A DNA stretch of 64,000 nt from Candidatus Gottesmanbacteria bacterium RIFCSPLOWO2_01_FULL_42_22 (GTDB lineage: Bacteria; Patescibacteriota; Microgenomatia; 2-02-FULL-39-11). The position numbers and the translations under genes were made by a program. The first letter of the stretch is position 1. Every line of letters begins with the position of its first letter. The notes beneath the pieces were generated by a model that made no database searches, was not told the origin of the DNA, and saw only the letters and a program-made list of their open reading frames with translations. Positions 38,476 through 60,946 of this stretch are shown here, piece by piece. The stretch spans positions 614 to 64,613 of the forward strand of contig MFJU01000028.1 in assembly GCA_001779315.1 (NCBI GenBank). The letters are read 5' to 3'.

Positions 38476-41400
38476 TTATTTAAAATCTAAAATAGTAAAG
38501 TTTATTTCCCCCGGGGAAAGTTTTAAGTTAACCACCGGCGTAAATGATCCAAACTTTAACTGGGGAATCGCAGTCGGTGTTAAAACAGCCGGATTTACAG
38601 TCGGAGTTGGAATAGTTTCCGGCAGCGGTTGATTTGCCGGTTTTAGGAAAAATATTTTGGCGATAAAATCCAAAATCAAGTCCACTAAACTAAGTTCCGG
38701 TTGATTTTGAGTTCCCAAGACTGTTTGCTGGTTGGCAGAACCCTTGATTTCCACAAAAATCCGATAATTTCCGGGCTCTTGGGGCACGGTATAATCCCAG
38801 GAACTTTGATATCGACCGGGTGTATCAGCTAATTCTTGAGCCGGAATCGGATCAGATATTTGTATTTCTTGTCTGTCTCTTTCTACATGAAAGATCATGC
38901 TATCAACTTTAATGTTCGGCTTAAGTGTTTTGGCAAAGGCAGTCAAAGTGACTTTATATCCGGCAAAAAAATTACCGGAATAGGTAAGACCATCGTTATT
39001 ATAGGATGTTGACAGATTTTCCCTGACGGCCGCTAATTTTCCGGCAAAGAAGTAATTTTGCCGCCAGCCGACTTGCGTATCGGGGTTGATGACGACTTCC
39101 AGCTCCGGATTAATATAATAAGTGCTATCGGCCCCGGTAATAATTTTGGCGATTCTAGCGCCCGTGGCATCATAGTAAAATTTGCTTTCTTTAAAACGAG
39201 AATCAACAGGAGAAACTTTTATAAGCCGGTTGTCCTTATCGTAAGTGTATAACCGCTCTGAATCCGAGGCGAGATTACCTACTTTGTCATAAGAATAGGT
39301 GTTAGTTTTTGAAGCGTCAGTTACCGTTAGCGGACGATGATAGAAAGAGCCGTTATAATCACTGTAGGCAAGAGTAGTTGTTGAGGAACCTTCGGTTTTA
39401 CTTAAAATGTTGTTAAGATCATCATAAGAGTAGTTGGCAGTATAGGCACCGGCCACATCCTTTAAACGGCTTAAGGCATCATAAGTAAAATTTTGGGTAA
39501 GGTAAAAAGGACTGGCAGCAGGAACCATGGGGTTATCGTCATTGATTTTTCTAATATTACCAAGCGGATCATATAGATAAGAGATCTTAATTTCATCTTT
39601 ATCAGCAAGAGCAGTCCCTATCACTTTCAATGTAGTCAGTCTGCTGTTGGTTGGATTATAGGTGAATAAGTTATTAACACCGTTACCGGAGGAAAATCTA
39701 ATTAATTGGCCGTCTTTGTTATAGCGGGCATTGGTGACATAATTGTTTGTTCCGGCAAGTTTCGTCAAATAAGGACGATTATAGGTATAAGTGATGGTTT
39801 CTGCAGGAATTGATAAACTGGTACTGCCTGATCGGGTTTGCGTTTTTACTCTTCCGCCCAAATCATAAGTAAAAGAGGTGCTGAAATTTTGGTTATTGAT
39901 GGCAGTATTGGGTAAATTTGACAAAGTCAAAGTACTGCTTGTCACCCTACCGCGGTGGTCATATTGGGATTTGACAGTTTGCAGCAAAGATCCGCTGCTT
40001 AAATCATATGAGCGCACTTGGCAGGATTTGCCAACTCCGTTGGTACAGCTATCGTAAATGTTTTCCAGAAGTAAAGTGGAATTTACTGATTTGCTTAAAA
40101 GTCTGTTAAGGGAATCATAAGAAAGAGTAGAGACATCACCCCGGGGATTGGTTTGAGTTTTGAGATTGCCGATTTTATCATATTCATAACGCCAGGAATT
40201 TACATCTCCGCTCATACTTGGACTCATATCGGCATCCCACATCCTGGTCTTTCTGCCCAAAGTATCGAATTCAACTATATTAATTACATTAGTTAATGTG
40301 TCTTTAGTTGTGGTTACAGAACCTAAAATCGGATGATATTCAAAACTGGTGGAATAAGTTTTACTGTCAGCAATTTCTTTAACTTCGAGAGTTTGTCCAA
40401 AAGCATCTTTGGTTGTCTGGTTGAAAGTACAAAGTGTTGCTGGATCAGTATCGGTACAGTTTTTATTGGAAGATTTAGTTAGCAGCGGATTTCCGCCCAC
40501 ATCATACTCGGTCGTCTCACTTGTTCCGTCAGGATAATTGACCGTAGTTGCCCTGCCCATTCCATCATAGGTGTATTTTACCTTTTGGATATTGGCACTA
40601 CCGGCGAAATCTCGGGTATCGAATGAGTTTTGTGTGCTTGGAATATAAGGATTTGCCGTGTAGTTAAGGCTCTGGTATTCCGGCTGACCCAAAGCATTAA
40701 ATGATTGGGATTTGATGATATCTCTGAAGGCATCGGCCACCGGTAGACCGGCATTTGAATACTCGTTTTCATACCAGAGTTGTCGAGTCTGAACAGTCTG
40801 GCCCAAGCCGTTATAATATGTGTGGGTTGCCGAGACTTTGCCGGCAGCACCGTTATCGGCAAAGCGGGAGGCGCTGTAAACCATCATTTTTGGACCTTTA
40901 CCATTCAATTGCTTACCTAGTCCTATCAAACAGTGATTAGCATCGTTACACGGTGCGATATCATCTCCGTTGAAATAATAATATTTGTTGAAAGAATCGG
41001 CTTTGGTACTGCTGGCAGGGTTCTTGCCCGGCAGGTAGGTCTCGGTAGCTCTTCCAAAAACATCATAAACACTATTGCTGACCTTGCCATTGGCATCTGT
41101 GACCCGAACAGGTATGCCCAAAACACCGCCATAATTGGGATGGGTGGAATCGGCGATATTAAAATCATAGACTGTCGTGGTTGACTGCCCCAAATTGTTG
41201 GTAACTTTTAGCGGATACAGATGAAAAACATTGTCATAAGTGGTGGTGCTGGATCGTCCCAAGGGGTCGGTGATTTTTGTCACTAACCAGGGGTAAGTCG
41301 CGTCGTAAGCGGAAGTCGTATCAGCATAAGCAGATCCGTTAATTAAGACGCTGGTTTTAGTCGGCAGGCCGTAGCTATTGTAAGTTATTTGGCTGTGATT

Positions 41401-43995
41401 GTACTTGGTTCCTGTTGGAGAACTAGCAGTCCAGCTTTCTTTGGGCCGAGGCAGAATCCATTTGAGAGTGTCGGCGTCTGTATAGTCGGTGTAGGATACT
41501 TTTTTGATATCAGAAGTATCATCCTGGTTGGGATCACTACAGCTCACCTTACCGTAATTAGTGGCCGTATGCAGCTGGGCATAAACATCATCAGTGCCAT
41601 CAATTTTTCTATGATCAGTGAATGTTTTAGTACAAAGAACTGCATTGTCTCCGACGAATTCTTTACTGACGTTATCTCTGGGAATAACCAAAGAAATGGA
41701 TGTTTCCGGATCGTAAGTGGCACATTTGTCATTTAAATTCCAGTCATAATAGCCTTCCCAGGGACCAAACATCGGACCGAAACGGATGGTAGAGCTGGAG
41801 GATGTTTCAGTTCTGCGGCCAGGTTTTTGCACATCGAAATTTATCGTTTTATAAGCAATTCCTTTCAAGGGACTGGGTTTGAAGCAAGTGGCAGTATCGA
41901 GTGCCTGGTAGTAAAATGATTTGGATTTAGCAACGACCTTATCGGTTGAATTTTTTTCATAGACAGTTGTTTCGACCTCGGGGTAACCCAAAAATTCAAA
42001 ACCGGAGAAGCTGTTGAAAATTTCCGCTCCCTCATCTGTTTCGCTATAATTTTTGACAGCTCCAAGACCCAAAGTAGCTCCGTTTCCGCTATAGTCATAG
42101 TTGGTCCGGACGCTATTTCCCATGCCATCCTCAACTATTTGGCTACTTATTCTGTGCCTTTGGGTGTTGAATTCATTGTCGGTCTTGCAGGTTTCTCCGT
42201 TTAGAGCTACTTTATCCGTGTCGCAGTATTTGATATTGAGAGCATTATTATTGGTGGCATCTTTCCAATACTCAAAAGTGACTTTTCCGCCATAGCCGTT
42301 TTCGGCTGTTTGCAAAAAGAAATCAGAGGGGGTTTTTACCTGATCAAGCAAATTCCTACCCCAAACAAATGAGGATAGAGGGCAGCCGCCCTTAAATTCT
42401 GCACAATCAGTACCGTAAGAAAAGGTATAGTTTGGCAGGCGTTTGGCGTGGGGATTTACATCAGGATCGTCACTGTAGACTTTAATAATCCTCAAAAGAG
42501 AATGAATAACCTGACCGTCTTTTACCTCCGCATCGTTTTCGGCTTTCCCGTCGCCATCGTCTAAGTGTTTTGCCGGAACCCAGCCGTATGAGTAATCCAA
42601 AACGTAAACCTTTCTTACCTTACCCAGAGTTTTGACAATTATTTTCTTCAGCCTTTCCAAATTACGGAGAGGTCTTTTGGGACTTGGGTTATCACCCTGG
42701 TGGATTTTATAGTCAAGTCTAGCCTCTCTCTGGAAAGAAATCTCGTTTTTTCCATAAGTAATAGATGACGGATAAACGGCTGAGACGTATCTATCGCCAT
42801 GCCCAGCATCTTCGATTTTCAGATTATAGCTATAGTTGATTTCAACAGGAACAGTAAAGATACTTTCAACTTTCGAGAGATACCATCTGTAGGTAAGGGA
42901 ATGATAACCGAGGGTATTGTTGCCCCAAATCAACCAGGCGTTGGGGCCAACGGGGCTTGAGTCATTGTCATATAAGGGATACCAGTCGTATTCTTTATTT
43001 TCCAGATCCTCATTGGTATCCGGGTCGTATGTTTTTTGCCAGGCTGTGGTGGTCGTTGGAGTGCCGAAATAATGCTTTGTACCATCTCCGGTTGTTACCA
43101 GCCAGTGATATCTGCAAAAATAGGTACCATCGTCGGCAGCATCTCTTTTGCATCTTGACCATCTTTCCACTTTCACTTTCAAATTTGGCACTGTCCTCCA
43201 GACACTATACTTTCCGTAATCAGTTCCTGCTTCACTTTCTTTTGATAAATTAGCACTACCGCCTGAAAAGGCTAAAATAAAGGCGTCATCACTCTGACCG
43301 GTTAGGGCACGCATGGATGAGCCTTTGGTATCCCGGGCGATATATTGTACTCCACCCAAATTCCAACCCAAACCAACCATGCCAGACTGATTCTGGTAGG
43401 GATGGTCAGTCCAACCCCGATAGCTGGTAAGAGTACCTAAGTTGAGATCATCAACACTTGAGGAGGAATAAGAAAGATCAAGTGAGGGAGTAAGGCCAGC
43501 AGGACCGGGCGGCAGATCAATAGGGTAGGAGACAGTAGCAGCTCCATTGAAGGCGTCGCTGCCAAAAGCTCTGCTGGATGGTAATTGCATGTTAGAAGTG
43601 CCTGCCTCATCAGAAGCAGCTGCCAGCGGATCGAAATCGCTTGTCACTCCTTTGACTCTCGGATTCTCTTTTTCAATCTCTTTGAGGAGCAAAACATAGT
43701 CCGGTCCATCAATTACATCATCGCTATTATAATCGTAGAACAGATCCTGGGTTTTGAGTGCCTTAAAATAGCCGGGAACGGATGGTTTAATAAGCCCAAA
43801 TTTTTTCAAAGAACGGCGGAAAGCCAGAGTGTTCTTTGCCGGAAAAATATTCTTTTTAATGATCAAAAAAGCACCAAGAGATATCAATGATAAAATTAAA
43901 ATCGTCAGGAAAATTACCTTGAGTTTGGGAGACCAAGTTTTATGAATGTCAGGCACGTTTAACTTAACCGTATTACAGAAAAGGATAACCGTCAA
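38476..43995 (-). CDS. RHS/YD-repeat family protein (1839 aa) with an N-terminal TM anchor and a T/P-rich tail ending LKFGSFTPVV
   Basis: Dozens of YD-type repeats (YDxxGRL, TYDxxGN, YxYDxxG). No core domain inside this ORF. Confidence 0.8.
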   Translation of the reverse strand: MTVILFCNTVKLNVPDIHKTWSPKLKVIFLTILILSLISLGAFLIIKKNIFPAKNTLAFRRSLKKFGLIKPSVPGYFKALKTQDLFYDYNSDDVIDGPDYVLLLKEIEKENPRVKGVTSDFDPLAAASDEAGTSNMQLPSSRAFGSDAFNGAATVSYPIDLPPGPAGLTPSLDLSYSSSSVDDLNLGTLTSYRGWTDHPYQNQSGMVGLGWNLGGVQYIARDTKGSSMRALTGQSDDAFILAFSGGSANLSKESEAGTDYGKYSVWRTVPNLKVKVERWSRCKRDAADDGTYFCRYHWLVTTGDGTKHYFGTPTTTTAWQKTYDPDTNEDLENKEYDWYPLYDNDSSPVGPNAWLIWGNNTLGYHSLTYRWYLSKVESIFTVPVEINYSYNLKIEDAGHGDRYVSAVYPSSITYGKNEISFQREARLDYKIHQGDNPSPKRPLRNLERLKKIIVKTLGKVRKVYVLDYSYGWVPAKHLDDGDGKAENDAEVKDGQVIHSLLRIIKVYSDDPDVNPHAKRLPNYTFSYGTDCAEFKGGCPLSSFVWGRNLLDQVKTPSDFFLQTAENGYGGKVTFEYWKDATNNNALNIKYCDTDKVALNGETCKTDNEFNTQRHRISSQIVEDGMGNSVRTNYDYSGNGATLGLGAVKNYSETDEGAEIFNSFSGFEFLGYPEVETTVYEKNSTDKVVAKSKSFYYQALDTATCFKPSPLKGIAYKTINFDVQKPGRRTETSSSSTIRFGPMFGPWEGYYDWNLNDKCATYDPETSISLVIPRDNVSKEFVGDNAVLCTKTFTDHRKIDGTDDVYAQLHTATNYGKVSCSDPNQDDTSDIKKVSYTDYTDADTLKWILPRPKESWTASSPTGTKYNHSQITYNSYGLPTKTSVLINGSAYADTTSAYDATYPWLVTKITDPLGRSSTTTYDNVFHLYPLKVTNNLGQSTTTVYDFNIADSTHPNYGGVLGIPVRVTDANGKVSNSVYDVFGRATETYLPGKNPASSTKADSFNKYYYFNGDDIAPCNDANHCLIGLGKQLNGKGPKMMVYSASRFADNGAAGKVSATHTYYNGLGQTVQTRQLWYENEYSNAGLPVADAFRDIIKSQSFNALGQPEYQSLNYTANPYIPSTQNSFDTRDFAGSANIQKVKYTYDGMGRATTVNYPDGTSETTEYDVGGNPLLTKSSNKNCTDTDPATLCTFNQTTKDAFGQTLEVKEIADSKTYSTSFEYHPILGSVTTTKDTLTNVINIVEFDTLGRKTRMWDADMSPSMSGDVNSWRYEYDKIGNLKTQTNPRGDVSTLSYDSLNRLLSKSVNSTLLLENIYDSCTNGVGKSCQVRSYDLSSGSLLQTVKSQYDHRGRVTSSTLTLSNLPNTAINNQNFSTSFTYDLGGRVKTQTRSGSTSLSIPAETITYTYNRPYLTKLAGTNNYVTNARYNKDGQLIRFSSGNGVNNLFTYNPTNSRLTTLKVIGTALADKDEIKISYLYDPLGNIRKINDDNPMVPAASPFYLTQNFTYDALSRLKDVAGAYTANYSYDDLNNILSKTEGSSTTTLAYSDYNGSFYHRPLTVTDASKTNTYSYDKVGNLASDSERLYTYDKDNRLIKVSPVDSRFKESKFYYDATGARIAKIITGADSTYYINPELEVVINPDTQVGWRQNYFFAGKLAAVRENLSTSYNNDGLTYSGNFFAGYKVTLTAFAKTLKPNIKVDSMIFHVERDRQEIQISDPIPAQELADTPGRYQSSWDYTVPQEPGNYRIFVEIKGSANQQTVLGTQNQPELSLVDLILDFIAKIFFLKPANQPLPETIPTPTVNPAVLTPTAIPQLKFGSFTPVVNLKLSPGEINFTILDFK

Positions 43996-44160: not shown

Positions 44161-45213
44161 ATGAATGATACGCAAGTTAATTCCCGACAAATAAAAATAT
44201 TACAATATCTCTGGACAAAGCCGACTACAACGCGCAAAGACATCGAGTCCGTTTTTCCTCAAGGATCAGTTTCCAGAATTACCCTGATTCGGGACCTTAA
44301 TAACCTCATCGAAAAGGGAATGATTCAACAATCCGGAGGTGGGAAATATATCAAATATTCACTTGTTCCGGACAAAGAAATCTTAGTACCTATAAATATA
44401 AATGAATATTTTCAGAGTCCGATTGATACTCGTTATGTCCGATACCCGTCATTCAATAATGGAGTCATCATTAAGCTTAACAACCTGTTTTCAAGCGATG
44501 AACTCCGTATATTTGAGCAGGGAAGAAAGCAGTTGCAAAGTCGCTTTGAAACTGTCGATCCGTCAATCATCAAACGGGAACTTGAACGGTTTACTATTGA
44601 ATTCTCCTGGAAATCATCACGTATTGAAGGAAACACCTATTCTCTATTAGAAACTGAGGAACTGATTAAAAACAAAAAAGAGGCACAAGGACACTCAAAA
44701 GAAGAAGCAATTATGATTCTCAATCATAAATCTTCTTTTGATACGATACTGGCCAACAAATCAACATTCCGGCAAATCAGCGAATATGATATCCGGTCGA
44801 TTCATAAAGAACTTGTCAAGGAACTCGATATTACCCCAAACATCAGGGAATATGGAGTTGGTATTACCGGCACGATATATAAACCGTTAGATACAAAATG
44901 GCAGATTGAGGAATCGCTTCATGCTGTTGTGGACCACGTCAAATCTGTCACAGATGTTGCGGAAAAATCTCTCATACTGCTGGCGATGATCTCCTATCTC
45001 CAACCTTTTGTCGATGGAAATAAACGCACCGCCCGGATGGTAAGTAATGCAATACTATTGGCAAACGGATATTATCCCCTTTCATATAGGAGCGTTGATG
45101 AAGTTGAATTTAAGAAGGCTTTGATTCTTTTCTACGAACAGAATAATCTTTTCCATTTGAAACGGATATTTTTGGACCAGCTGCAATTTGCAATTCAACA
45201 ATACTTCGTCTAA
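44161..45213 (+). CDS. Fic/Doc-family protein with an N-terminal winged HTH and a degenerate motif (QPFVDGNKRTAR)
   Basis: The canonical HPFx[DE]GNGRxxR has H replaced by Q and G by K (motif at 44998..45036). Confidence 0.6.
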   Translation: MNDTQVNSRQIKILQYLWTKPTTTRKDIESVFPQGSVSRITLIRDLNNLIEKGMIQQSGGGKYIKYSLVPDKEILVPININEYFQSPIDTRYVRYPSFNNGVIIKLNNLFSSDELRIFEQGRKQLQSRFETVDPSIIKRELERFTIEFSWKSSRIEGNTYSLLETEELIKNKKEAQGHSKEEAIMILNHKSSFDTILANKSTFRQISEYDIRSIHKELVKELDITPNIREYGVGITGTIYKPLDTKWQIEESLHAVVDHVKSVTDVAEKSLILLAMISYLQPFVDGNKRTARMVSNAILLANGYYPLSYRSVDEVEFKKALILFYEQNNLFHLKRIFLDQLQFAIQQYFV

Positions 45214-49726: not shown

Positions 49727-50092
49727 ATGAAAAAGGGCACCGCTCATAACTGCCGGGCGATTGTCGTCGGCTGTATGGATTTCCGCTTGAGAAGCGACAT
49801 CCGAAAGTGGACAGCTAAACTCGAAGGAGGCTTTGACAGGCTGGCTATTGCCGGAGGGGTAAAAAATCTTCCATTTGTCCTTGAGCAGGTAGAACTTTCA
49901 TATAAACTGCACCATATCTGTGAAGTCTATCTGATGAACCATGAAGACTGCGGGGCTTACGGGGAAGAAGGGACTTTAAAAAAACACCGTCAGGACCTCT
50001 CCTTCGCCAAAAAGATCATCAAACAAAAATTCCCCAAGCTCAAGATTGTCACCCTCTTTCAAAAACTCAACGGCAACTTTGTGGAAGTTTAA
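49727..50092 (+). CDS. small protein with beta-carbonic-anhydrase-like zinc-site motifs
   Basis: GCMDFRL (CxDxR) and NHEDCGA (HxxCG). Only 121 aa, shorter than typical beta-CAs. Confidence 0.35.
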   Translation: MKKGTAHNCRAIVVGCMDFRLRSDIRKWTAKLEGGFDRLAIAGGVKNLPFVLEQVELSYKLHHICEVYLMNHEDCGAYGEEGTLKKHRQDLSFAKKIIKQKFPKLKIVTLFQKLNGNFVEV

Positions 50093-50136: not shown

Positions 50137-51090
50137 TTACGGAAGAAGACTCATTATGTCCCCGGTAATGTAATTGCCGTCTTGGGGAATATACTGTTGA
50201 GCGGTATATTGATCTACCCTGGTTTGCCAGTTTTCTGCCCTGTTGGTTGGAGAAATCGAAGTATACTGGTCAGGAAATTGCATGGAAATACTGGGCGGAT
50301 TGCGATTTGTAATAATTGATAAAATCTCATCAGCATGAGCTTTTGGCAGTATATAGACACATTTTTGCCGGGAATTGGCATTTTTATATTTATTGGCCAA
50401 AGTCAATAAAAAAGCAGAGTTTATGGTCATGCGATAGGTACTCTCATCACCTCTGCCGCCGAACAATCTCTCAACTCCGTGTTTGGCGGCAACATCCATA
50501 AAGCTGTTCTGATTGGCCGGATCGAGTACCCAAATCGGCTTCCCGTAGTTCATGCTGAATTTGTATATTTTGGAAAAAAACGGAATAAATTTTTCATCAG
50601 GATCGGCAATGAAATTTACCCAAAAGCTGCTTTTTTTCATTTCTTCAATTGCCGGCGGATAATATTCGGGAATCACACAGCTGCTGCTCTCAATTGCTTC
50701 CTTAATTTTTTTCATCTTTTCCTTATTTTCTACATCCTCTAAATGATGTTCTGTCATTAAAAAAGTCACCGTAAAAAAATCATTCAGCTTTAAGGTCCTT
50801 ACTTCCAAACCTTCCAGCGGATTTTCCACGGTTATGCTATTAACATCTATCGTCGACTCCATGGTTATTTTCCTGGAATTTTGCTGTTGATCACCAGATA
50901 AAGGTTGTACTGCAACTGTCGAATCCATGTTTCCTATTTGTCCCTGAATCGGCTCTTTACTTGGTATGTGAGTTTCAGGAGGAGGCGGTTTTAACCGGCA
51001 AGACGCAAGGACAGCACTTCCAAAAGCCACGCCTAAAAATCTTAAAAAATCCTGGCGGTCCATTTCAGCTAAATTGACCATAACTTTCAA
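50137..51090 (-). CDS. putative lipoprotein
   Basis: RQDFLRFLGVAFGSAVLASC leader with lipobox LASC. Tat-like but only one Arg. Confidence 0.5.
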   Translation of the reverse strand: MKVMVNLAEMDRQDFLRFLGVAFGSAVLASCRLKPPPPETHIPSKEPIQGQIGNMDSTVAVQPLSGDQQQNSRKITMESTIDVNSITVENPLEGLEVRTLKLNDFFTVTFLMTEHHLEDVENKEKMKKIKEAIESSSCVIPEYYPPAIEEMKKSSFWVNFIADPDEKFIPFFSKIYKFSMNYGKPIWVLDPANQNSFMDVAAKHGVERLFGGRGDESTYRMTINSAFLLTLANKYKNANSRQKCVYILPKAHADEILSIITNRNPPSISMQFPDQYTSISPTNRAENWQTRVDQYTAQQYIPQDGNYITGDIMSLLP

Positions 51091-51224
51091 AGATTACTAT
51101 AGGATAATAAGGACAGGCAATGCATCACCAATACATAGCGGATCCTGATTTATCTATTGATAAAAGTCTATTTGATTGAGGCTGTAGCGGGGAGTATGAT
51201 AAAATTTATACTATCGGACTTTGT

Positions 51225-51785
51225 ATGACAGTCTATTTCACTGCTTCAATCGTCGGCAAAAAATACCATTTGATTAATTACCTGAAAATTATTGATATCC
51301 TTAAATCTAAAAACTGCCAGGTTATTTCCGACCACATTATCAAATCGACCGAATCTGAAGTCAAGCTGGAAAACAAAGAAGACCGGTTGAAGTTCCATAA
51401 ACAGCTGGAAAAATGGATATCATCTGCTGATTTTATCGTCGCAGAAACGACCTTTCCTTCCATTTCAGTCGGTTACGAAATATCGCTGGCCGAAGCTTTC
51501 CTCAAACCGATCCTGATACTTTTTTCCGAAGGCAATCCCCCCTCTCTTCTGGCCCACCACCGGGATGAAAAATTGATCTGTGAAAAATATAGCGGGGAAA
51601 ACCTTCCCGGCCTTATTGATGATTTTATCAATTACGTCAGAGGCAACAATGATACACGCTTCACTTTTTTTATCACTTCCAAAATCGCCTCTTTCCTGAA
51701 TAAGGTCTCAAAACGGGAAAAACTGCCAAAATCGGTTTACCTGCGGCAGCTTATCGAAAAAGAAATGAAAACTGGCGGAAAATAA
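51225..51785 (+). CDS. DNPH1/RCL-like nucleotide hydrolase domain fused to a C-terminal ribbon-helix-helix domain, paralog A
   Basis: VYFTASIVGKK...ADFIVAETTFPSISVGYEISLAEAFLKPILILF parallels DNPH1 (VYFCGSIRGG...VVVAEVTQPSLGVGYELGRAVAFNKRILCLF) including the catalytic Glu. C-terminal RFTFFITSKIASFLNKVSKREKLPKSVYLRQLIEKEM is RHH-like. Confidence 0.6.
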   Translation: MTVYFTASIVGKKYHLINYLKIIDILKSKNCQVISDHIIKSTESEVKLENKEDRLKFHKQLEKWISSADFIVAETTFPSISVGYEISLAEAFLKPILILFSEGNPPSLLAHHRDEKLICEKYSGENLPGLIDDFINYVRGNNDTRFTFFITSKIASFLNKVSKREKLPKSVYLRQLIEKEMKTGGK

Positions 51786-51867
51786 TTTTTTTACCCGACA
51801 CCCCTTCTTTTTCAATGCATATCGGTTATGCATTGAGATTGTCATAAAGCTCTATTTAAAATAGGGC

Positions 51868-53113
51868 ATGACACTAATTTCTGAAAACTTCTGCTGGATC
51901 AATCATCCAGAATTTTCTTCCGGTGATCCGCTTTTGGATAAAACCGCCGGCCTATTTGCCTCTCTAATGACCGGTCAAATCCCCGACCGGCAGACCGCGG
52001 ATTACCTACCCATCAACGGAGGAGCCGTATCTGCTCCGGCTGAAGCCAGTCTTCTGCTGCAATACGGTTTAACAGACCATGAAGACTCCCTGCTCTCCGA
52101 TTCCGATCTAAATTTAATCCCTGAAAGCCTGCTGGAAATGTTGCGCTGTGCTGATGAAATGAGAATTATTGATGCCCGCCGGAAAATTTTTGATGACAGC
52201 CGGCGGATAAAGGAACTTGAAGCGGAAAAAGCCCAGGTAGTCCAATCACGGATTGATGCTGTTTTAACTTTTTTTGCCCAACAGAAACCGTTACACATTC
52301 CGGAAAACTCCGGCCATCCTCCCGATGAACGAACAGCTTTGCTTGCCCGGCTGCTTCAGCCTGAGATCAGAACGAATAGAGCTAATACCGATACGGCTTT
52401 GCGCGGAGGCAGAACGTTACTTTTCAGTCGTGAGGAAATCGATGATACAGCCAGAAAGACTGCCGCAGTCTCTGCCTCTGCCATGGCAGAATTGGATCTT
52501 CTGGAAAGACAAACAGACCGGCTCCGGCGGGAAAAATCAAGCCTAAATACTTCTCTGACGGATTTAATTCGTTTGAATCGCCTCCTTAAAGAAAACCAAA
52601 GCATAATTTATCACTATTTTTTTAAAAAGGAAAAACGCCAGATTCTGGATAATATGCCTCCTTTATCTGATGAGAGCCGGAATCTGTTTCAGTTGGCCGG
52701 ATTGTGTGCTTTTATTCAGGGAGTCCTCTACCGCAAATTTACCCCGAGTAATAAGCTTCCCCGAAGCATAGATCTTAAAAAAACCGCTAAAAATATGCTT
52801 GCCTATGCTTGCCCAGGTACATCATCAAAACCGCAGGGGGATTGATGCCCTGCTTAAAAGAATGGAGGCGGTCATTCTGAAAAACCCAGCCGCTTCGCAA
52901 AATCAATTAAATGATTTCCTCGACAGGTTAAGGTCAATGGAAAAAGAACTAAAACCAAATCCCAAGACGGAAGTTGAGCGGACAAGACCGGCTGAAAACG
53001 GCAGGCCGGTCCTTTATTATTTGATATCCGTCATGGAAAATATAGGAACCCCAAATCATCCCGTCTGGCAAAGGAAGGCATGGCTGATCCCTAAAGAATT
53101 TGGCAATCGATAA
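51868..53113 (+). pseudogene. hypothetical ~415-aa gene split by a 10-bp tandem duplication (52795..52814)
   Basis: ATGCTTGCCT/ATGCTTGCCC direct repeat. Removing one copy joins ORF 51868..52845 in-frame to ORF 52799..53113. Confidence 0.55.
52795..52814. repeat. 10-bp tandem duplication causing a +1 frameshift
   Basis: Seen directly. Confidence 0.8.
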
Positions 53114-53384
53114 TTCACCTATTTCCCAAGACAGAGGGAAAAAATATTGGGGCGATATGTCAAAGGTAACATCAAAGGACCTCGAGGCTATGCATCAACT
53201 TGCCCGGGACTGGGGAATGATTAGGGCCAGGTATGAAATAGATGCTGCCCGAGCTAAAGCCAATGGCAGACCATTCTCACCAGTTAGAATTAGTGATGAG
53301 CATCCTGCACCTGAAGTCATGACTTTCCAGGAATTTGAGGAATTATCCAGAGAAATGGGCAGTCGAAACAGACAGAACAATTAG
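53100..53384 (+). CDS. small hypothetical protein
   Basis: ORF only. Overlaps the end of the previous gene by 14 nt. Confidence 0.35.
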   Translation: MAIDNSPISQDRGKKYWGDMSKVTSKDLEAMHQLARDWGMIRARYEIDAARAKANGRPFSPVRISDEHPAPEVMTFQEFEELSREMGSRNRQNN

Positions 53385-53413
53385 GAATTTTAATCAGTTA
53401 TAATAAGGTATTC

Positions 53414-53971
53414 ATGAAGGCTTATTTCACCGCTTCAATCACCGGCAAAAAGCAGTATTTACCGAATTATCAGTATATTCTGGACGAACTGCGGCAACAT
53501 AAATTGGAGGTCATTTCCGACCATATCATAAAGACCGAAGAGTCCGAAGTTAATTTAAGTAAGCGTGAAGACCGCCTGAAATTCCACAAACAGCTCGAGA
53601 AATGGATATCATCATCAAACTGCATGGTAGCCGAAGTCTCATTCCCCTCAATCAGCGTCGGCTATGAAATTTCCCTGGGGCTTCATTTAGGCAAACCAGT
53701 CCTGGTCCTTTATAACGAGGGCTATCCCCCATCGCTTCTGGCTGAACACAAAGATGAAAAATTAATAACGGAGCGTTACAGCAAGGAAACTCTGCCGGGA
53801 ATAATCGGGGACTTCGTAGAATTCGTCAAAGGTCCGGCGGATATGCGCTTCACTTTTTTCATCACCCGGGAAATCGCCGCCTATTTGGATAAAGTCACTG
53901 TCAGAAAAAAAGTCCCCAAAGCAGTATACCTTCGCAAACTGGTCGAGGAAGACATGAAGAAAAACAGCTGA
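53414..53971 (+). CDS. DNPH1/RCL-like nucleotide hydrolase domain + RHH fusion, paralog B
   Basis: AYFTASITGKK...CMVAEVSFPSISVGYEISLGLHLGKPVLVLY. Same architecture as 51225..51785. Confidence 0.6.
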   Translation: MKAYFTASITGKKQYLPNYQYILDELRQHKLEVISDHIIKTEESEVNLSKREDRLKFHKQLEKWISSSNCMVAEVSFPSISVGYEISLGLHLGKPVLVLYNEGYPPSLLAEHKDEKLITERYSKETLPGIIGDFVEFVKGPADMRFTFFITREIAAYLDKVTVRKKVPKAVYLRKLVEEDMKKNS

Positions 53972-54682
53972 CTAATTATTCACCTCTGCTTGAATAGGGC
54001 ACATCAGGAGCTGATTGTAACCGGTGGCGGAAACTTTGACTTCTTCCCCACCAGACAGGAAAAAATTGGCAGGCTCAATCTTCCAGCTGAACGGATCGGC
54101 AATCAGAAGTTTCAGGCTATTATTTCCCCCGCTGCTTTTCAAATCCTGCATAATGCAATAATATCCGGCAGGACAGAATTGGGGCGGCCGGATGACGTAG
54201 TGGCCGCCTGTTAAACTGACCTGGCCGTAACCTTTGATATCGGTCATTAAAGAGCGACAGGAAGAGGCACTGTTTGACTGGATAGCGGAGAGCATTTCTA
54301 TTTTTCCCCGGCAGACGGTGAAGCTGCCCGAATAGGGATAAAGCTGTCCGCAGGCTGATGTACGGGCAATGAGGCTAACTTTCCCTGTGGTTTCGGCAGG
54401 TGAAACGAAACGGGTGGGTAATGGATAGACGCGGCTTGGCATTGGCATGGGATAGGGCTTGTAGGAATCTGAAATAGGCGGAATAATTCTGGCGCGGCCT
54501 GAAATCGGCCTGTCTGAAATAAAAGCTTTGGCCAGCGGCAGCCAAAGATACGATCTCAAAGCAGACAATGCCAGAAAAAAGAAGACAACTAAAACTAATT
54601 TTGCTGTTTTGCCCATAAAAAAATGCCCTTTATCGGGCAGTAAAGACATCTTATCCTCAAGACCTTTTTCTGTCAAGCTCAT
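53972..54682 (-). CDS. membrane-anchored Cys-rich hypothetical protein
   Basis: N-terminal TM. ORF only. Confidence 0.45.
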   Translation of the reverse strand: MSLTEKGLEDKMSLLPDKGHFFMGKTAKLVLVVFFFLALSALRSYLWLPLAKAFISDRPISGRARIIPPISDSYKPYPMPMPSRVYPLPTRFVSPAETTGKVSLIARTSACGQLYPYSGSFTVCRGKIEMLSAIQSNSASSCRSLMTDIKGYGQVSLTGGHYVIRPPQFCPAGYYCIMQDLKSSGGNNSLKLLIADPFSWKIEPANFFLSGGEEVKVSATGYNQLLMCPIQAEVNN

Positions 54683-54870
54683 CCTAAAGAGTGTGTTGAA
54701 TAACTCTTGGTCATTTCGAATGAAATGAGAAATCCAGGCACGAAGTGCTGCATTTTACGCTGACGCTAGATTTCTCGCTACGCTCGAAATGACAATATGA
54801 AAAACGTTTTTCATCAGACTCTGTACATAACTTGACATGTACTAATAAAAATATGATATAATACGACACT

Positions 54871-55077
54871 ATGGTAGAAAAATTCGTACCTAAAATTGCA
54901 CCTGATGATGTTGAATCTATCTTTCAAGCAACGGCTGATCATCTTGGAATCAGCGTTGAAGAGGTTATGCAGATATCTAGAGATGTTATGGAATCAGGAA
55001 CTGCGGTATTCTTTGAGCGTAGAGGTGAAGCACGAGTTCCTGTCACAAAATCTTCTCAAGACTTACCCAAACCTTAA
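54871..55077 (+). CDS. small hypothetical protein
   Basis: ORF only. Confidence 0.25.
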   Translation: MVEKFVPKIAPDDVESIFQATADHLGISVEEVMQISRDVMESGTAVFFERRGEARVPVTKSSQDLPKP

Positions 55078-55606
55078 TTTATTGATTCTTTATGGAAACT
55101 GAGAAATACGTTTCCGATTCTTGACTGCCTTATTTAATTTTCAATTGTCAGCAGTCCGCGATACTCGACCACGCTGCGCTCTCAGATAGATTTTCAAACC
55201 ATTCTATCCTCAAGTCTCATAATACAGTATATGCGGTTCTAACCCCGCAGAATCTCTTCCATATTCCGCTATACTCATTTTAATTTGATAAAATTGTGTA
55301 AAATTACTTCGGAATTACTGAAAAACCGCAAATCAAGAAAGCTTACGTCAGACGGACGGCTCGTTGGAGATTTGGGAGAAAAATTAATCCAGATGGTTCT
55401 TTTGAGGAAATTTACAATGGCCCAGGGAAATATCTTAAACAGCTTACTATGAAAAGCAAATCACCATACAATCGTCTGCATCTTCTCCCTATAAATAAGT
55501 TGAGAGAGATATCCGAAGTAATTCCGAAGAATGATAAGATTAAAAACTCCTGTGTCTGAAAATACGGTCCAGGCTGAAAACAAATTTGTCTTATCCAAAC
55601 AGAAAA

Positions 55607-56278: not shown

Positions 56279-57130
56279 TCAGAATAATGAAGTCCAGTCC
56301 TTATAGAAGCTGACAAGTCCGCGGTCGGTCAGCATATGCTGTAAATCATATGTCTGCCAATCCCTGCCCAACTTGACATCAGCCCGATAAGGAATCGGTC
56401 TTAATTCCGGTTTATTATAGAGATAATCATCAGCGGGATTTCTGAAGTTTTCATCAGCCCATAGTTGGAAGATTTTAAAGGGAATGGTGATGATGTCCGA
56501 TTTAAGCAAAAGCGCATACAAGATGTGATCAAGATTTCTGACTGAAGCGGTGAGAACTTCCACATGACCATCTCCATTTTCATACAAATTGAGGATATTT
56601 TTAACAACCTCCATGCCGTTTTCTCCGATATCATCCAACCTGCCTACGAATGGAGAAATAAATATAGGATATTTAGCCCCCCGGGTAATTTCATAGACGG
56701 CAGCCGCCTGGCTCTGTGAAAAAACCAGTGTGATGTTTATTGGCATTTCAAGACTTGCTTTGCCAGCCGCTTTTAAGCCTTCGTGAGTTGCGGGAAACTT
56801 GATCGAAGCATTGGGAATCCATTTGTTTCTCTCCCTGGCCTGCTCCAACATATCTCCGGCGCTAGTTTTTTCATCGGCAAAGACCTGAATTGAGATTGAG
56901 CCGCCGGGAATGACTGAGCTCATTTCCCGGACTATCCGTTTATATTCAGCTAAAGCATCTTTTTCGGTCAGTTTGCCACTCTTTTCCACCAAATTCCTAG
57001 CAATCAGGGTCGGGTTGGTCGTCTGTCCGTCCAGAGGGAAACCTAAGGTAACCGACCGACGCTCTGAAGCTTCTTTAGTTTCTGTAGGGCTACCGCCGTC
57101 AATGAAAATTTTTGAAGGTAATCTGTTCAT
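56279..57130 (-). CDS. tal: transaldolase / fructose-6-phosphate aldolase family (short type)
   Basis: KIFIDGGSP...GQTTNPTLI, IKFPATHEGL, TLVFSQSQAAAV...ISPFVGRLDD. Confidence 0.8.
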   Translation of the reverse strand: MNRLPSKIFIDGGSPTETKEASERRSVTLGFPLDGQTTNPTLIARNLVEKSGKLTEKDALAEYKRIVREMSSVIPGGSISIQVFADEKTSAGDMLEQARERNKWIPNASIKFPATHEGLKAAGKASLEMPINITLVFSQSQAAAVYEITRGAKYPIFISPFVGRLDDIGENGMEVVKNILNLYENGDGHVEVLTASVRNLDHILYALLLKSDIITIPFKIFQLWADENFRNPADDYLYNKPELRPIPYRADVKLGRDWQTYDLQHMLTDRGLVSFYKDWTSLF

Positions 57131-59047: not shown

Positions 59048-60946
59048 TTAGAGGGTTTGGACAGCTTTAATGATGGCTTTGGCATCTATACCTTCTAAAG
59101 CCAGAAGTTCGGCGGGTTTGCCGCTTCTGGGCATTTTGCTGACAGCCAATTTGGTAATTTTGACATTGGGATCGGAAGCGAAGACATTTAAGACAGCATC
59201 GCCCAATCCCCCTTCGAACCAGTGGTCTTCGACGGTTATGACTTGGGCCGTCCCAACGCCATTTGCCCCGAAAGCTTTCGGGGGCCTTGCGAGGCTGGAT
59301 AGGGTTTTAGCATCGATGGGTTTTATGGAGTAACAATCAACTACTGTCACTCCAATCCCCACTTTGGCTAATTCCTCTTGGGCTTTGAGGGCTTCGAAGA
59401 GAGTAACGCCGGCAGCAATAATCAGTATTCGGATTTCGGATTTCGGATTTCGGATTTTTGGCAAGTGGATTTTGCAGCCTCCAATAGGAAATTCCTCATT
59501 GTTGTCATATATAACGGAAGTGGCCGGACGGGAGGTCCTTAGATAACTGATACACTGGCAATTGATCATTTCTTCGACCAATTTCTCGGTTGAAACGGCA
59601 TCGGCAGGATAGAGAACGGTAGAGCCGTTGACCGCCCGGAACATGGCCAAATCCTCCAAACCCATTTGTGACGGTCCGTCCTCGCCGATTGAGACGCCGG
59701 CATGGGAGCCGCATATTTTGATATTTGCTCCCGAGACAGCAGCCATGCGGATCTGGTCGAAACCTCGGGTCAGGAAAGCGGCAAAAGTGGAGACAAAAGG
59801 AATATAGCCTAATTTGGCAAAGCCTACGGCCGCCCCGACCATGTTCTGCTCGGCAATAAACATTTCAAAAAAGCGGCCGGGATATTTCGCCTGGAATATT
59901 TCGGCATAGGTCGAATTTTTGACATCGCCGTCTAATGAAACCAATAAGGGATATTTCTCCCCCAGCCTGGCCAGGGCATTACCGTATGCCTTGCGTGTAG
60001 CCGCCGAATCTCCGGTTTTGTATTTGGTGTTCGGTATTTGGACGGTGGTATTTTTTTTGTTTTTAATAGCCGGTGCCGCTTTAGCTACTTCACCGCGCAG
60101 ATTTAAATCAACTTTTCCCAATTCTTTTAAGGCTTTTACCAAATCCTCCGGAGCAAGCGGCTTGCCGTGCCAACCCTCCTTGTTTTCGATAAAAGAGACG
60201 CCTTTGCCTTTGACGGTTTTGGCGATGATGACTGTCGGCTGTTTGACTGTTGATGACTGGATTTTTTGGAAAGCTTGGCTGATTTGATTCAGATTGTGGC
60301 CGTCCAAAACTTCTGTTTGCCAGCCGAAAGCTTTGAAACGTTTTTCATAAACTTGCGTATCCCAGCCCAGCATCGTCTCCCGGCTTTGGCCTAAGCGGTT
60401 GACATCGAGGATGGCGGTAAGGTTGTTTAACTTGTAATATGACGCAAGATTAACAGCTTCCCAAACTGATCCTTCGGCCATTTCCCCGTCTCCTAAGAGA
60501 ACAAAAACCCGGGGCAGGCTTTTTATGGAAGGCAGATTTTCATTATACTTTCTGATGGCCAGTGCCATACCGAATCCGATGGATAGCCCCTGACCGAGAC
60601 TGCCGGTGGCTACTTCGGTAAATTTGAAACGGGGTGTCGGATGGCCCTCAAGCGGCGAATCGATGCGGCGCAGGCTTTTTATTTCTGTTTCAGTAATTTG
60701 ATTGGCTGCCAGAAATAACGAATAATAAAGGGGCGAGGCATGACCTTTGGAAAAAATCAGGCGGTCGTTGGCTAAATTCTCTGGTTTATCAAAATCAAAA
60801 TGATAGAACCGGCCGAACATCAAAACCGTCATCAGATCAGCAGCGGAAAGTGACGAGGTCGGATGGCCGCTCCCGGCTGATGAAGAAGAAACCAGGCTGT
60901 AATATCTTACTAATTTAGCTAAAGCCGACAGTCTAGCAGTATTCAT
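59048..60946 (-). CDS. tkt: transketolase
   Basis: GSGHPTSSLSAADLM, HFDFDKPENLANDRLIFSKGHASPLYY, TPP and pyrimidine domains, complete 632 aa. Confidence 0.9.
   Translation of the reverse strand: MNTARLSALAKLVRYYSLVSSSSAGSGHPTSSLSAADLMTVLMFGRFYHFDFDKPENLANDRLIFSKGHASPLYYSLFLAANQITETEIKSLRRIDSPLEGHPTPRFKFTEVATGSLGQGLSIGFGMALAIRKYNENLPSIKSLPRVFVLLGDGEMAEGSVWEAVNLASYYKLNNLTAILDVNRLGQSRETMLGWDTQVYEKRFKAFGWQTEVLDGHNLNQISQAFQKIQSSTVKQPTVIIAKTVKGKGVSFIENKEGWHGKPLAPEDLVKALKELGKVDLNLRGEVAKAAPAIKNKKNTTVQIPNTKYKTGDSAATRKAYGNALARLGEKYPLLVSLDGDVKNSTYAEIFQAKYPGRFFEMFIAEQNMVGAAVGFAKLGYIPFVSTFAAFLTRGFDQIRMAAVSGANIKICGSHAGVSIGEDGPSQMGLEDLAMFRAVNGSTVLYPADAVSTEKLVEEMINCQCISYLRTSRPATSVIYDNNEEFPIGGCKIHLPKIRNPKSEIRILIIAAGVTLFEALKAQEELAKVGIGVTVVDCYSIKPIDAKTLSSLARPPKAFGANGVGTAQVITVEDHWFEGGLGDAVLNVFASDPNVKITKLAVSKMPRSGKPAELLALEGIDAKAIIKAVQTL
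59431..59458. repeat. tandem heptamer GGATTTC (x~3.5) inside the tkt coding sequence
   Basis: Seen directly. In-frame 21-nt unit encoding a small insertion (PKIRNPKSEIR) relative to typical transketolases. Confidence 0.7.

Follow-up and report, generated by a model that had tools for sequence, protein, structure and literature searches.

The locus analysed here lies in a stretch of 64,000 nucleotides (64 kb; below, the window) of contig MFJU01000028.1 of Candidatus Gottesmanbacteria bacterium RIFCSPLOWO2_01_FULL_42_22, and comprises two paralogous genes, A (51225..51785, + strand, 186 amino acids (aa)) and B (53414..53971, + strand, 185 aa), a disrupted gene between them (51868..53384, + strand), and a palindrome directly after A. 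Paralog A is of the mainstream ortholog type, with a domain resembling the nucleotide N-hydrolase DNPH1 (residues 1-138) and a ribbon-helix-helix (RHH) tail (residues ~141-182), and B has the same architecture with all key residues retained. A sequence-only reading of the window had reported both open reading frames (ORFs) as paralogs on the basis of shared motifs; both are present at these coordinates, carry YFTASI.GKK and VAE[TV][TS]FPSISVGYEIS, and share 63% identity over 182 aa with 0 gaps (BLASTP E 2e-87). Both genes are under strong purifying selection, with ratios of nonsynonymous to synonymous substitutions (dN/dS) of 0.06 (A) and 0.08 (B) and dS near saturation.

A protein search with A yielded 625 close homologs, the best 120 of which are almost all ~185 aa and full length (62-95% identity); those with a named host come from Candidatus Gottesman-, Roizman- and Daviesbacteria. 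When each species was represented by a single genome, relatives were located in 116 species genomes, all of them Candidate Phyla Radiation (CPR)/Microgenomates-like, and a profile search of 1.84 billion cluster representatives (50% identity) gave 928 at E <= 1e-10, both domains being covered in nearly all of the best 150. In Pfam, A and B scored 26.5 and 25.4 bits with PF05014 (Nuc_deoxyrib_tr, residues 3-105; cut-off 28.8) and 18.4 and 16.5 bits with PF12651 (RHH_3, residues 144-178; cut-off 21.6); the two domains, for which a profile search had been proposed in the sequence-only reading, are thus sub-threshold in A and B and significant at the family level, where PF05014 is matched by 119/120 close homologs (best E 6e-9) and RHH_3 by 104/120 (best E 9.4e-7). 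Because full-length homologs occur family-wide and most members contain both Pfam domains, the combination of a DNPH1-like domain with an RHH tail is an ancient, selected architecture of a conserved ~185-aa Microgenomates family. The possibility that the fusion is absent elsewhere and merely reflects a local frameshift is ruled out by the same full-length fusions. The family looks vertically kept over Gottesman-, Roizman-, Davies- and Woesebacteria, with 55-92% identity. No paper on a DNPH1-like/RHH fusion was found in the literature, in keeping with the sequence-only reading, to whose author no described family of this kind was known; in sequence databases the family itself is large.

Comparison of loci from Roizmanbacteria, Daviesbacteria and other hosts revealed no conserved neighbourhood besides the element directly downstream of the gene. 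Most genomes have a solo copy with unrelated neighbours and no conserved partner from a known toxin family, so that the shared gene neighbourhood for which a search had been recommended does not exist; the bracket of A and B occurs in two genomes only, and a B-type paralog was seen solely in the window and in Gottesmanbacteria GW2011_GWA2_43_14 (below, GWA2_43_14). Many of the scanned relatives (loci L015, L018, L020-L023 and others) come from third-party annotation (TPA) metagenome bins titled 'uncultured Gammaproteobacteria'; dozens of these bins, some with contigs of 0.4-1 Mb, contain the Microgenomates-type gene at 55-67% identity, and their label is probably wrong.

For the N-terminal domain, a profile built from the 120 homologs matched only DNPH1/Rcl in the PDB (E 2.5e-14 to 2e-11; rat 2.5e-14, human ~3e-12). 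The AlphaFold (AF2) monomer model, with a predicted local distance difference test (pLDDT) of 85.4, consists of a flavodoxin-like core (residues 1-138), an extended segment (139-151) and two helices (152-165 and 169-182), and the best 50 PDB matches obtained with Foldseek were all DNPH1 (E 3e-9, target template modelling (TM) score 0.71-0.84). Profile and fold therefore agree on the DNPH1/RCL assignment, and the counter-case of a better fit to a non-catalytic flavodoxin-like family with loss of the glutamate was not borne out, DNPH1 being the sole PDB match and the glutamate being kept in close homologs. The RHH nature of the tail, likewise anticipated, is upheld by the RHH_3 matches, by the beta-alpha-alpha pattern that follows the core in the structure prediction, and by the tail strand R-F-T-F-F-I-T, which shows the alternating pattern of an RHH ribbon. 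A tail-only profile gave weak matches to CopG, a CopG-family regulator, antitoxin and other RHH chains (E 0.05-0.3); its best PDB match is an uncharacterised 73-aa protein, which we take to be the RHH antitoxin of a toxin-antitoxin pair.

Between A and the disrupted gene lies a 19-bp palindrome, ATGCATATCGGTTATGCAT (51815..51833), which matches the motif given below with one mismatch and which we propose as an operator. It is the sole good copy in the window, and was accordingly rejected as a genome-wide repeat. A palindrome of this kind follows shortly after the stop codon in 47/85 orthologs, with the consensus ATRCATMA-N3-TKATGYAT, that is, two ATGCAT-type sub-sites 13 bp apart, each of which is itself dyad-symmetric and thereby suits an RHH ribbon. 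ATGCAT is found within 150 nt past the stop codon in 39/85 orthologs, versus ~5 expected, and in upstream regions in only 8/85; when up to two mismatches were allowed, the motif had 48 sites in 15.7 kb beside stop codons versus 26 in the other ~595 kb, a ~70-fold enrichment. A -10-like hexamer begins 22-23 nt past the motif in 45 of the 48 sites, and in 26 loci the next start codon lies 30-40 nt past it, whichever gene follows; by these fixed distances, the element would cover positions -53 to -35 or so of a promoter for leaderless transcription. The window palindrome is abutted by the promoter-like site TTGAGA-18-TAAAAT (51833..51862, + strand; 10/12 matches, the best-scoring in 50900..54200), whose end lies only 5 nt ahead of the start codon at 51868 (ATG), so that the transcript would have no leader. 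Since the palindrome abuts the -35 position of a promoter right after the regulator gene, the regulator would control whichever gene comes next.

A palindrome at the 3' end of a gene sits in the usual place of a terminator, and an 8-bp hairpin can form here; the element could be unrelated to the fusion protein, serving as a terminator or RNA-stability hairpin or as the site of another factor at the downstream promoter. We give this explanation little credence. The arms of the palindrome vary independently (81.8% of cells pair, versus 80.5% in shuffles, with 50/500 shuffles reaching the observed value) and A·C mismatches are common (14/46 at one pair, 17-19 at two others), as would be expected if the element acts as DNA and not as a hairpin in RNA. 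At the window palindrome no terminator or T-run was called and Rfam returned nothing; the hairpin/terminator reading was rejected for want of covariation and a T-run. It is the sequence that is conserved, not the structure, along with the spacing to the -10 box of the next gene, and the motif stays with the regulator gene at the 17 loci where a different gene lies downstream. Distant copies of the motif before other genes keep the same geometry; they stand ahead of genes for small membrane proteins, of a transaldolase-like gene and, at 1.8 kb, of a member of the permease family treated below.

The next gene in 33/85 loci encodes a 55-77-aa protein with a C-terminal hydrophobic helix (W..AW..L.L.EKL.WI.F..NT.AI.TL.E.L.LK), and the motif is present at 31 of these 33 loci. 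These small proteins have no Pfam match, are absent from the window and constitute an undescribed family. Their ORF starts 30-70 nt past the palindrome on the + strand in L016, L024, L032, L035, L041, L050, L058 and others, and a remnant of the gene is seen at L010 4743-4880. Other motif-driven genes encode an amino-acid permease, an Na+/H+ exchanger, unknown proteins of 250-370 aa and, in GWA2_43_14, a 544-aa protein whose counterpart in the window is the disrupted gene. The motif-driven ORFs in L017, L019, L079 and L084, which replace the small membrane protein, are unannotated, 254-373 aa long and without Pfam match, and appear to share the C-terminal motif I/V-G-x-x-G-x-P-[LWI]-[VRS]-[RG]-[RS]-[AI]. 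A palindrome of the same spacing precedes AA_permease_2 in three genomes (L023 6396; L025 3602, - orientation; L029, adjacent), and palindromes also precede the Na+/H+ exchanger (L054) and the transaldolase-like gene (L014 5470, - strand). Judged by motif position, these genes hint at a small regulon of transport and pentose-phosphate functions.

A small hydrophobic protein as the usual downstream gene also invites a toxin-antitoxin-like or anti-phage explanation, wherein the RHH tail represses a small membrane-damaging peptide or the 544-aa protein, and the DNPH1-like domain senses nucleotides or depletes deoxynucleoside monophosphates (dNMPs); sensing of phage-derived or depleted nucleotides would then lift repression. 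RHH tails are typical of antitoxins, as presumably is the 73-aa protein matched best by the tail profile, and NCBIfam, which gave nothing useful on A and B, contains a weak RelB-like match (E 0.17). The best DNPH1 substrate is the modified nucleotide 5hmdUMP (PMC10483697). The window further includes a variable region with RHS and Fic genes, and an AbiEii gene is found at the sister locus described below. We nevertheless hold this explanation to be distinctly improbable. PADLOC models gave 0 matches to 7 locus proteins, which speaks against the defence module considered in the sequence-only reading, and the dNMP-depleting toxin with its own repressor, a further role considered there, is at odds with dN/dS values of about 0.06-0.08, mostly solo copies and the lack of a known-toxin partner. 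Vertical-looking conservation across four Microgenomates groups, dN/dS < 0.1, and a motif that drives an amino-acid permease, an Na+/H+ exchanger and a transaldolase-like gene all fit such a module poorly, as does an operator located between the two genes and not, as in type II systems, ahead of the operon.

How the DNPH1-like domain might contribute can be judged from its active site. DNPH1 employs a Y24-D80-E104 triad, with Asp80 as the likely general acid, plus H56 and R30, which contribute to the proton relay and to contact with the base; the phosphate is bound by Ser98, by the backbone of the GSIRGG loop and, across the dimer, by Ser128' (PMC10483697; PMC12751057). In the family, Tyr4, His37, Ser79 and Glu85 are invariant in the 120 close homologs and correspond to human Tyr24, His56, Ser98 and Glu104, with Asp36 at the position of Glu55. 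The Asp80 position is occupied by Leu61 in an ungapped alignment (anchors H58/Q60/W64 versus H77/Q79/W83), and is never Asp or Glu and always hydrophobic in 133 diverse members of the fused family; Arg30 is replaced by Val10, a position that varies between V, I, A and T. The catalytic glutamate noted in the sequence-only reading is therefore real and invariant in close homologs as E85, but the triad to which it belongs in DNPH1 is incomplete. S8 is also invariant among the 120, as is P106, which with S107 forms part of a PPS(L) loop that may replace Ser128' of DNPH1, the alignment being uncertain there. Counts over the 133 diverse members are 93 Glu, 22 Leu and 6 Ile at position 85, so that the nucleophile is gone in about 30%, and 78 Tyr, 30 Phe and 12 His at position 4. 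Conservation is highest among the RHH residues (R145, 124/133; R174, 131/133; also F146 and L176), the catalytic positions being relaxed. Because the Tyr-Glu pair, the His and the phosphate-binding Ser are kept while the general-acid Asp is missing, the pocket appears to be retained for binding of a nucleotide monophosphate, and efficient hydrolysis is less likely than mere binding or a very slow turnover; on these residues, catalysis by the family is doubtful.

The same residues bear on the possibility that A and B are active salvage enzymes, that is, dNMP or nucleoside monophosphate (NMP) N-glycosidases releasing (deoxy)ribose 5-phosphate and base, with the RHH tail serving for oligomerisation or DNA tethering, or, as a hybrid, trigger enzymes. 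The invariance of Glu85, Tyr4, His37 (with Asp36 matching human Glu55) and Ser79 in close homologs would be expected of such an enzyme, and so would strong purifying selection and the solo gene with unrelated neighbours in most genomes; transaldolase and transketolase genes lie 2-7 kb downstream in the window, and in L014 the motif precedes the transaldolase-like gene. We still rate this as rather unlikely, given the replacement of the likely general acid Asp80 (PMC10483697; PMC12751057) by Leu61 and its never being acidic in the 133 members, the replacement of Arg30 by Val10, and the roughly 30% of diverse members that have no Glu yet keep the RHH residues. An active enzyme would also give no reason for a palindrome and a promoter to be conserved next to the 3' end of its gene. 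With a smaller probability still, the protein could be a trigger enzyme or sensor of modified nucleotides, in which a long-lived complex with a (deoxy)nucleotide, e.g. a phage-type modified dNMP, switches the RHH domain on or off the palindrome; this complex might be a covalent Glu85-deoxyribosyl-phosphate intermediate that is not resolvable without the Asp.

On balance, we favour the reading in which A and B are one-component, nucleotide-monophosphate-sensing RHH regulators, possibly with some enzymatic activity left, that control the next gene via the 19-bp palindrome. In such a regulator, the RHH tails would dimerise, and the two ATGCAT-type sub-sites would be recognised by RHH dimers; the DNPH1-like domains, too, would form dimers and bind a nucleoside or deoxynucleoside 5'-monophosphate at the dimer interface. 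As in NikR, the geometry or DNA affinity of the RHH pair would depend on ligand occupancy, and with it the activity of the adjacent promoter, with repression by blocking the -35 position as the favoured outcome and activation being possible at this location. We infer the link between protein and motif from adjacency and co-inheritance; the nucleotide as ligand and the sign of regulation are likewise proposals. Among the three roles considered in the sequence-only reading, a nucleotide-sensing regulator fits best, but the autoregulation that was part of that role is not borne out by the operator-like site found, which is downstream of the gene, at the promoter of the next one.

Several observations weigh against the proposed regulator. 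In 35/85 orthologs, both the motif and a nearby small membrane-protein gene are lacking, and no motif follows paralog B. The best palindrome follows a further paralog, C, of GWA2_43_14, which has Cys at the position of Arg145. The Pfam scores of A and B are slightly below the curated cut-offs for both PF05014 and RHH_3, and the invariant Y4, H37, E85 and S79 of close homologs also suit a working enzyme with an RHH tail of other purpose. Finally, an auto-operator was not detected upstream of the gene, as 76 non-redundant upstream regions contain no shared repeat.

The sole enriched element in these 76 regions is a -10 box, tgGTATAATA, typically 6-8 nt before the ATG and without a Shine-Dalgarno sequence, which suggests that leaderless mRNAs are the norm for the regulator gene and the motif-driven genes in Microgenomates. 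Upstream of A, a candidate promoter at 51172..51205 (+ strand) reads TTGATT-17-TATGAT or TTGAGG-18-TAAAAT, by consensus match only. A variant half-site pair, ATGCAT-N5-ATACAT (51120..51136), with 11-nt spacing and a geometry unlike that of the main motif, is located between A and a divergent gene encoding 317 aa, and is perfect (ATGCAT-N5-ATGCAT) in the sister genome RIFCSPHIGHO2_02_FULL_39_14 (Gottesmanbacteria, the closest relative; loci L001 and L009). L012 has a 19-bp motif copy, of standard spacing but with a degenerate right arm, 8 nt ahead of the regulator's own -10 box. The variant pair and the L012 copy may represent lineage-specific autoregulation.

DNPH1/Rcl, the only solved relative by profile and the best fold match (TM ~0.8), has in common with the family the AE...PS..VGYE motif and a probable dimeric state; the family differs in Leu61 for Asp80, Val10 for Arg30, an extra RHH tail of 45 aa and its Microgenomates hosts. 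A parallel in domain logic is NikR, which combines an RHH domain with a dimerising ligand-binding domain in one chain and binds a palindromic operator with two separated half-sites, much as the operator proposed here is a palindrome of two sub-sites. In contrast to NikR, the RHH domain of the family is C-terminal, reversing the domain order, the sensor has the DNPH1/NDT and not an ACT-like fold, the ligand is presumably a nucleotide and not nickel, and the sub-sites are 13 bp apart as against 16 bp of separation in NikR. Trigger enzymes such as PutA, BirA and NadR, in which a demonstrably active enzyme is fused to a DNA-binding domain (RHH in PutA), share the presence of an enzyme fold and a DNA-binding domain in a single polypeptide, whereas the catalytic set of the family is incomplete and its fold unrelated. 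Like the CopG, Arc and MetJ repressors and type II antitoxins, the family has a beta-alpha-alpha segment and a proposed operator reaching the -35 region; those proteins, however, are small and stand-alone or have toxin-binding tails, whereas the family adds a nucleotide-hydrolase-like domain of 138 aa and has its site downstream of its own gene. NrdR, a nucleotide-sensing repressor built from an ATP-cone and a zinc ribbon, resembles the family in the concept of a transcription factor with a nucleotide-binding sensor, but both folds are unrelated and the regulon is another one.

The gene bracketed by A and B (51868..53384) is a pseudogene of an orphan, mostly helical 544-aa protein that is intact in GWA2_43_14 (P0121). 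Its fragments (51868..52845, 52799..53113 and 53100..53384) are 39-55% identical to P0121 in tblastn and BLASTP comparisons. A frameshifting 10-bp tandem duplication, TATGCTTGCC in two copies (52794..52813, + strand), forms the first lesion; as the sequence-only reading had it, this duplication breaks a gene of about 415 aa, and removal of one copy restores an ORF of 411 aa. The second lesion is an out-of-frame deletion junction (53096..53105, + strand), at which ~45 codons corresponding to P0121 residues ~418-462 are gone, and what had been taken for a separate 94-aa ORF (53100..53384) is the C-terminal piece of the same gene. With two independent lesions, the window copy is a true pseudogene. 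Searches of Pfam, NCBIfam and PADLOC with the bracketed gene gave no match, two protein searches and a metagenome scan with the 544-aa protein returned only the GWA2_43_14 protein itself, and its AF2 model is helical and uninformative (pLDDT 46).

The origin of the bracket becomes apparent from the related loci. In GWA2_43_14, the order is A, a short remnant of the small membrane-protein gene, paralog C, the intact 544-aa gene and B; A and B are 83% and 80% identical to their window counterparts, and C is divergent (36-40% identity), with GYE changed to GIQ. RIFCSPHIGHO2_02_FULL_39_14 has the flanking genes in common with the window but only a single gene between them; over the first ~480 nt this gene agrees with window A, at 90-100% in most stretches of 40 nt, and its last ~50 nt and the downstream flank match window B, identifying it, by sequence, as an A/B recombinant from which everything in between is deleted. 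The last ~15 codons of window A and the sequence downstream are closer to paralog C of GWA2_43_14 than to its A, so that window A is probably an A/C hybrid by which the small gene and the body of C were lost. Of 89 loci, those of the window and GWA2_43_14 genomes alone have multiple copies within 4 kb. From these alignments, A and B with the gene they bracket are what is left of a tandem array of paralogs that decays via recombination at conserved RHH-coding 3' ends: an ancestral array of A, the small membrane-protein gene, C, the 544-aa gene and B would collapse by recombination between the 3' ends of the paralogs. A mobile element or cassette bounded by A and B was considered and rejected, as no integrase or transposase was seen and hybrid genes in the sister genomes explain the pattern. 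The window is itself a clear case of a tandem array that collapses through recombination between the conserved 3' ends of its paralogs.

The flank of the locus is variable. In the sister genome, the homologs of the 236-aa and DUF2270 genes of the window are separated by three genes (L001 7422-9517), which encode a 377-aa protein, a member of the AbiEii family and a 70-aa protein, where the window (54683-55606) has short ORFs only. Upstream of the locus, the window encodes a putative carbonic anhydrase (Pro_CA_2, 49727-50092, + strand) and, further away, an 1839-aa RHS-repeat, SpvB-like protein (38476-43995, - strand) adjoining a Fic/DOC-domain protein with an N-terminal winged-helix-like region (44161-45213, + strand); this pair, ~7 kb upstream of the locus, looks like a polymorphic-toxin neighbourhood. 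Downstream are transaldolase (56279-57130, - strand) and transketolase (59048-60946, - strand). The carbonic anhydrase and transaldolase genes are syntenic with L001.

The fusion family, in which a nucleotide-enzyme fold is joined to a DNA-binding tail, belongs to the better conserved Microgenomates proteins. To our knowledge, almost nothing is known about gene regulation in CPR/Patescibacteria, which are unable to make nucleotides and have to scavenge them, and DNPH1 itself is a current cancer-drug target. New here are a concrete candidate operator, whose distance to a leaderless promoter is fixed, and a putative regulon in which the small membrane protein is joined by a permease and an ion exchanger. 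If the protein is a trigger enzyme or modified-nucleotide sensor, CPR bacteria would adjust the expression of transporters and of the small membrane protein to nucleotide quality or scavenging; for no Microgenomates transcription factor would a cis-element and regulon have been defined before, and the DNPH1 fold would have a new use as a sensor. If the favoured reading of a nucleotide-monophosphate-sensing RHH regulator is true, the family would offer a first handle on nucleotide-responsive transcription in CPR, with the DNPH1 fold reused as a sensor.

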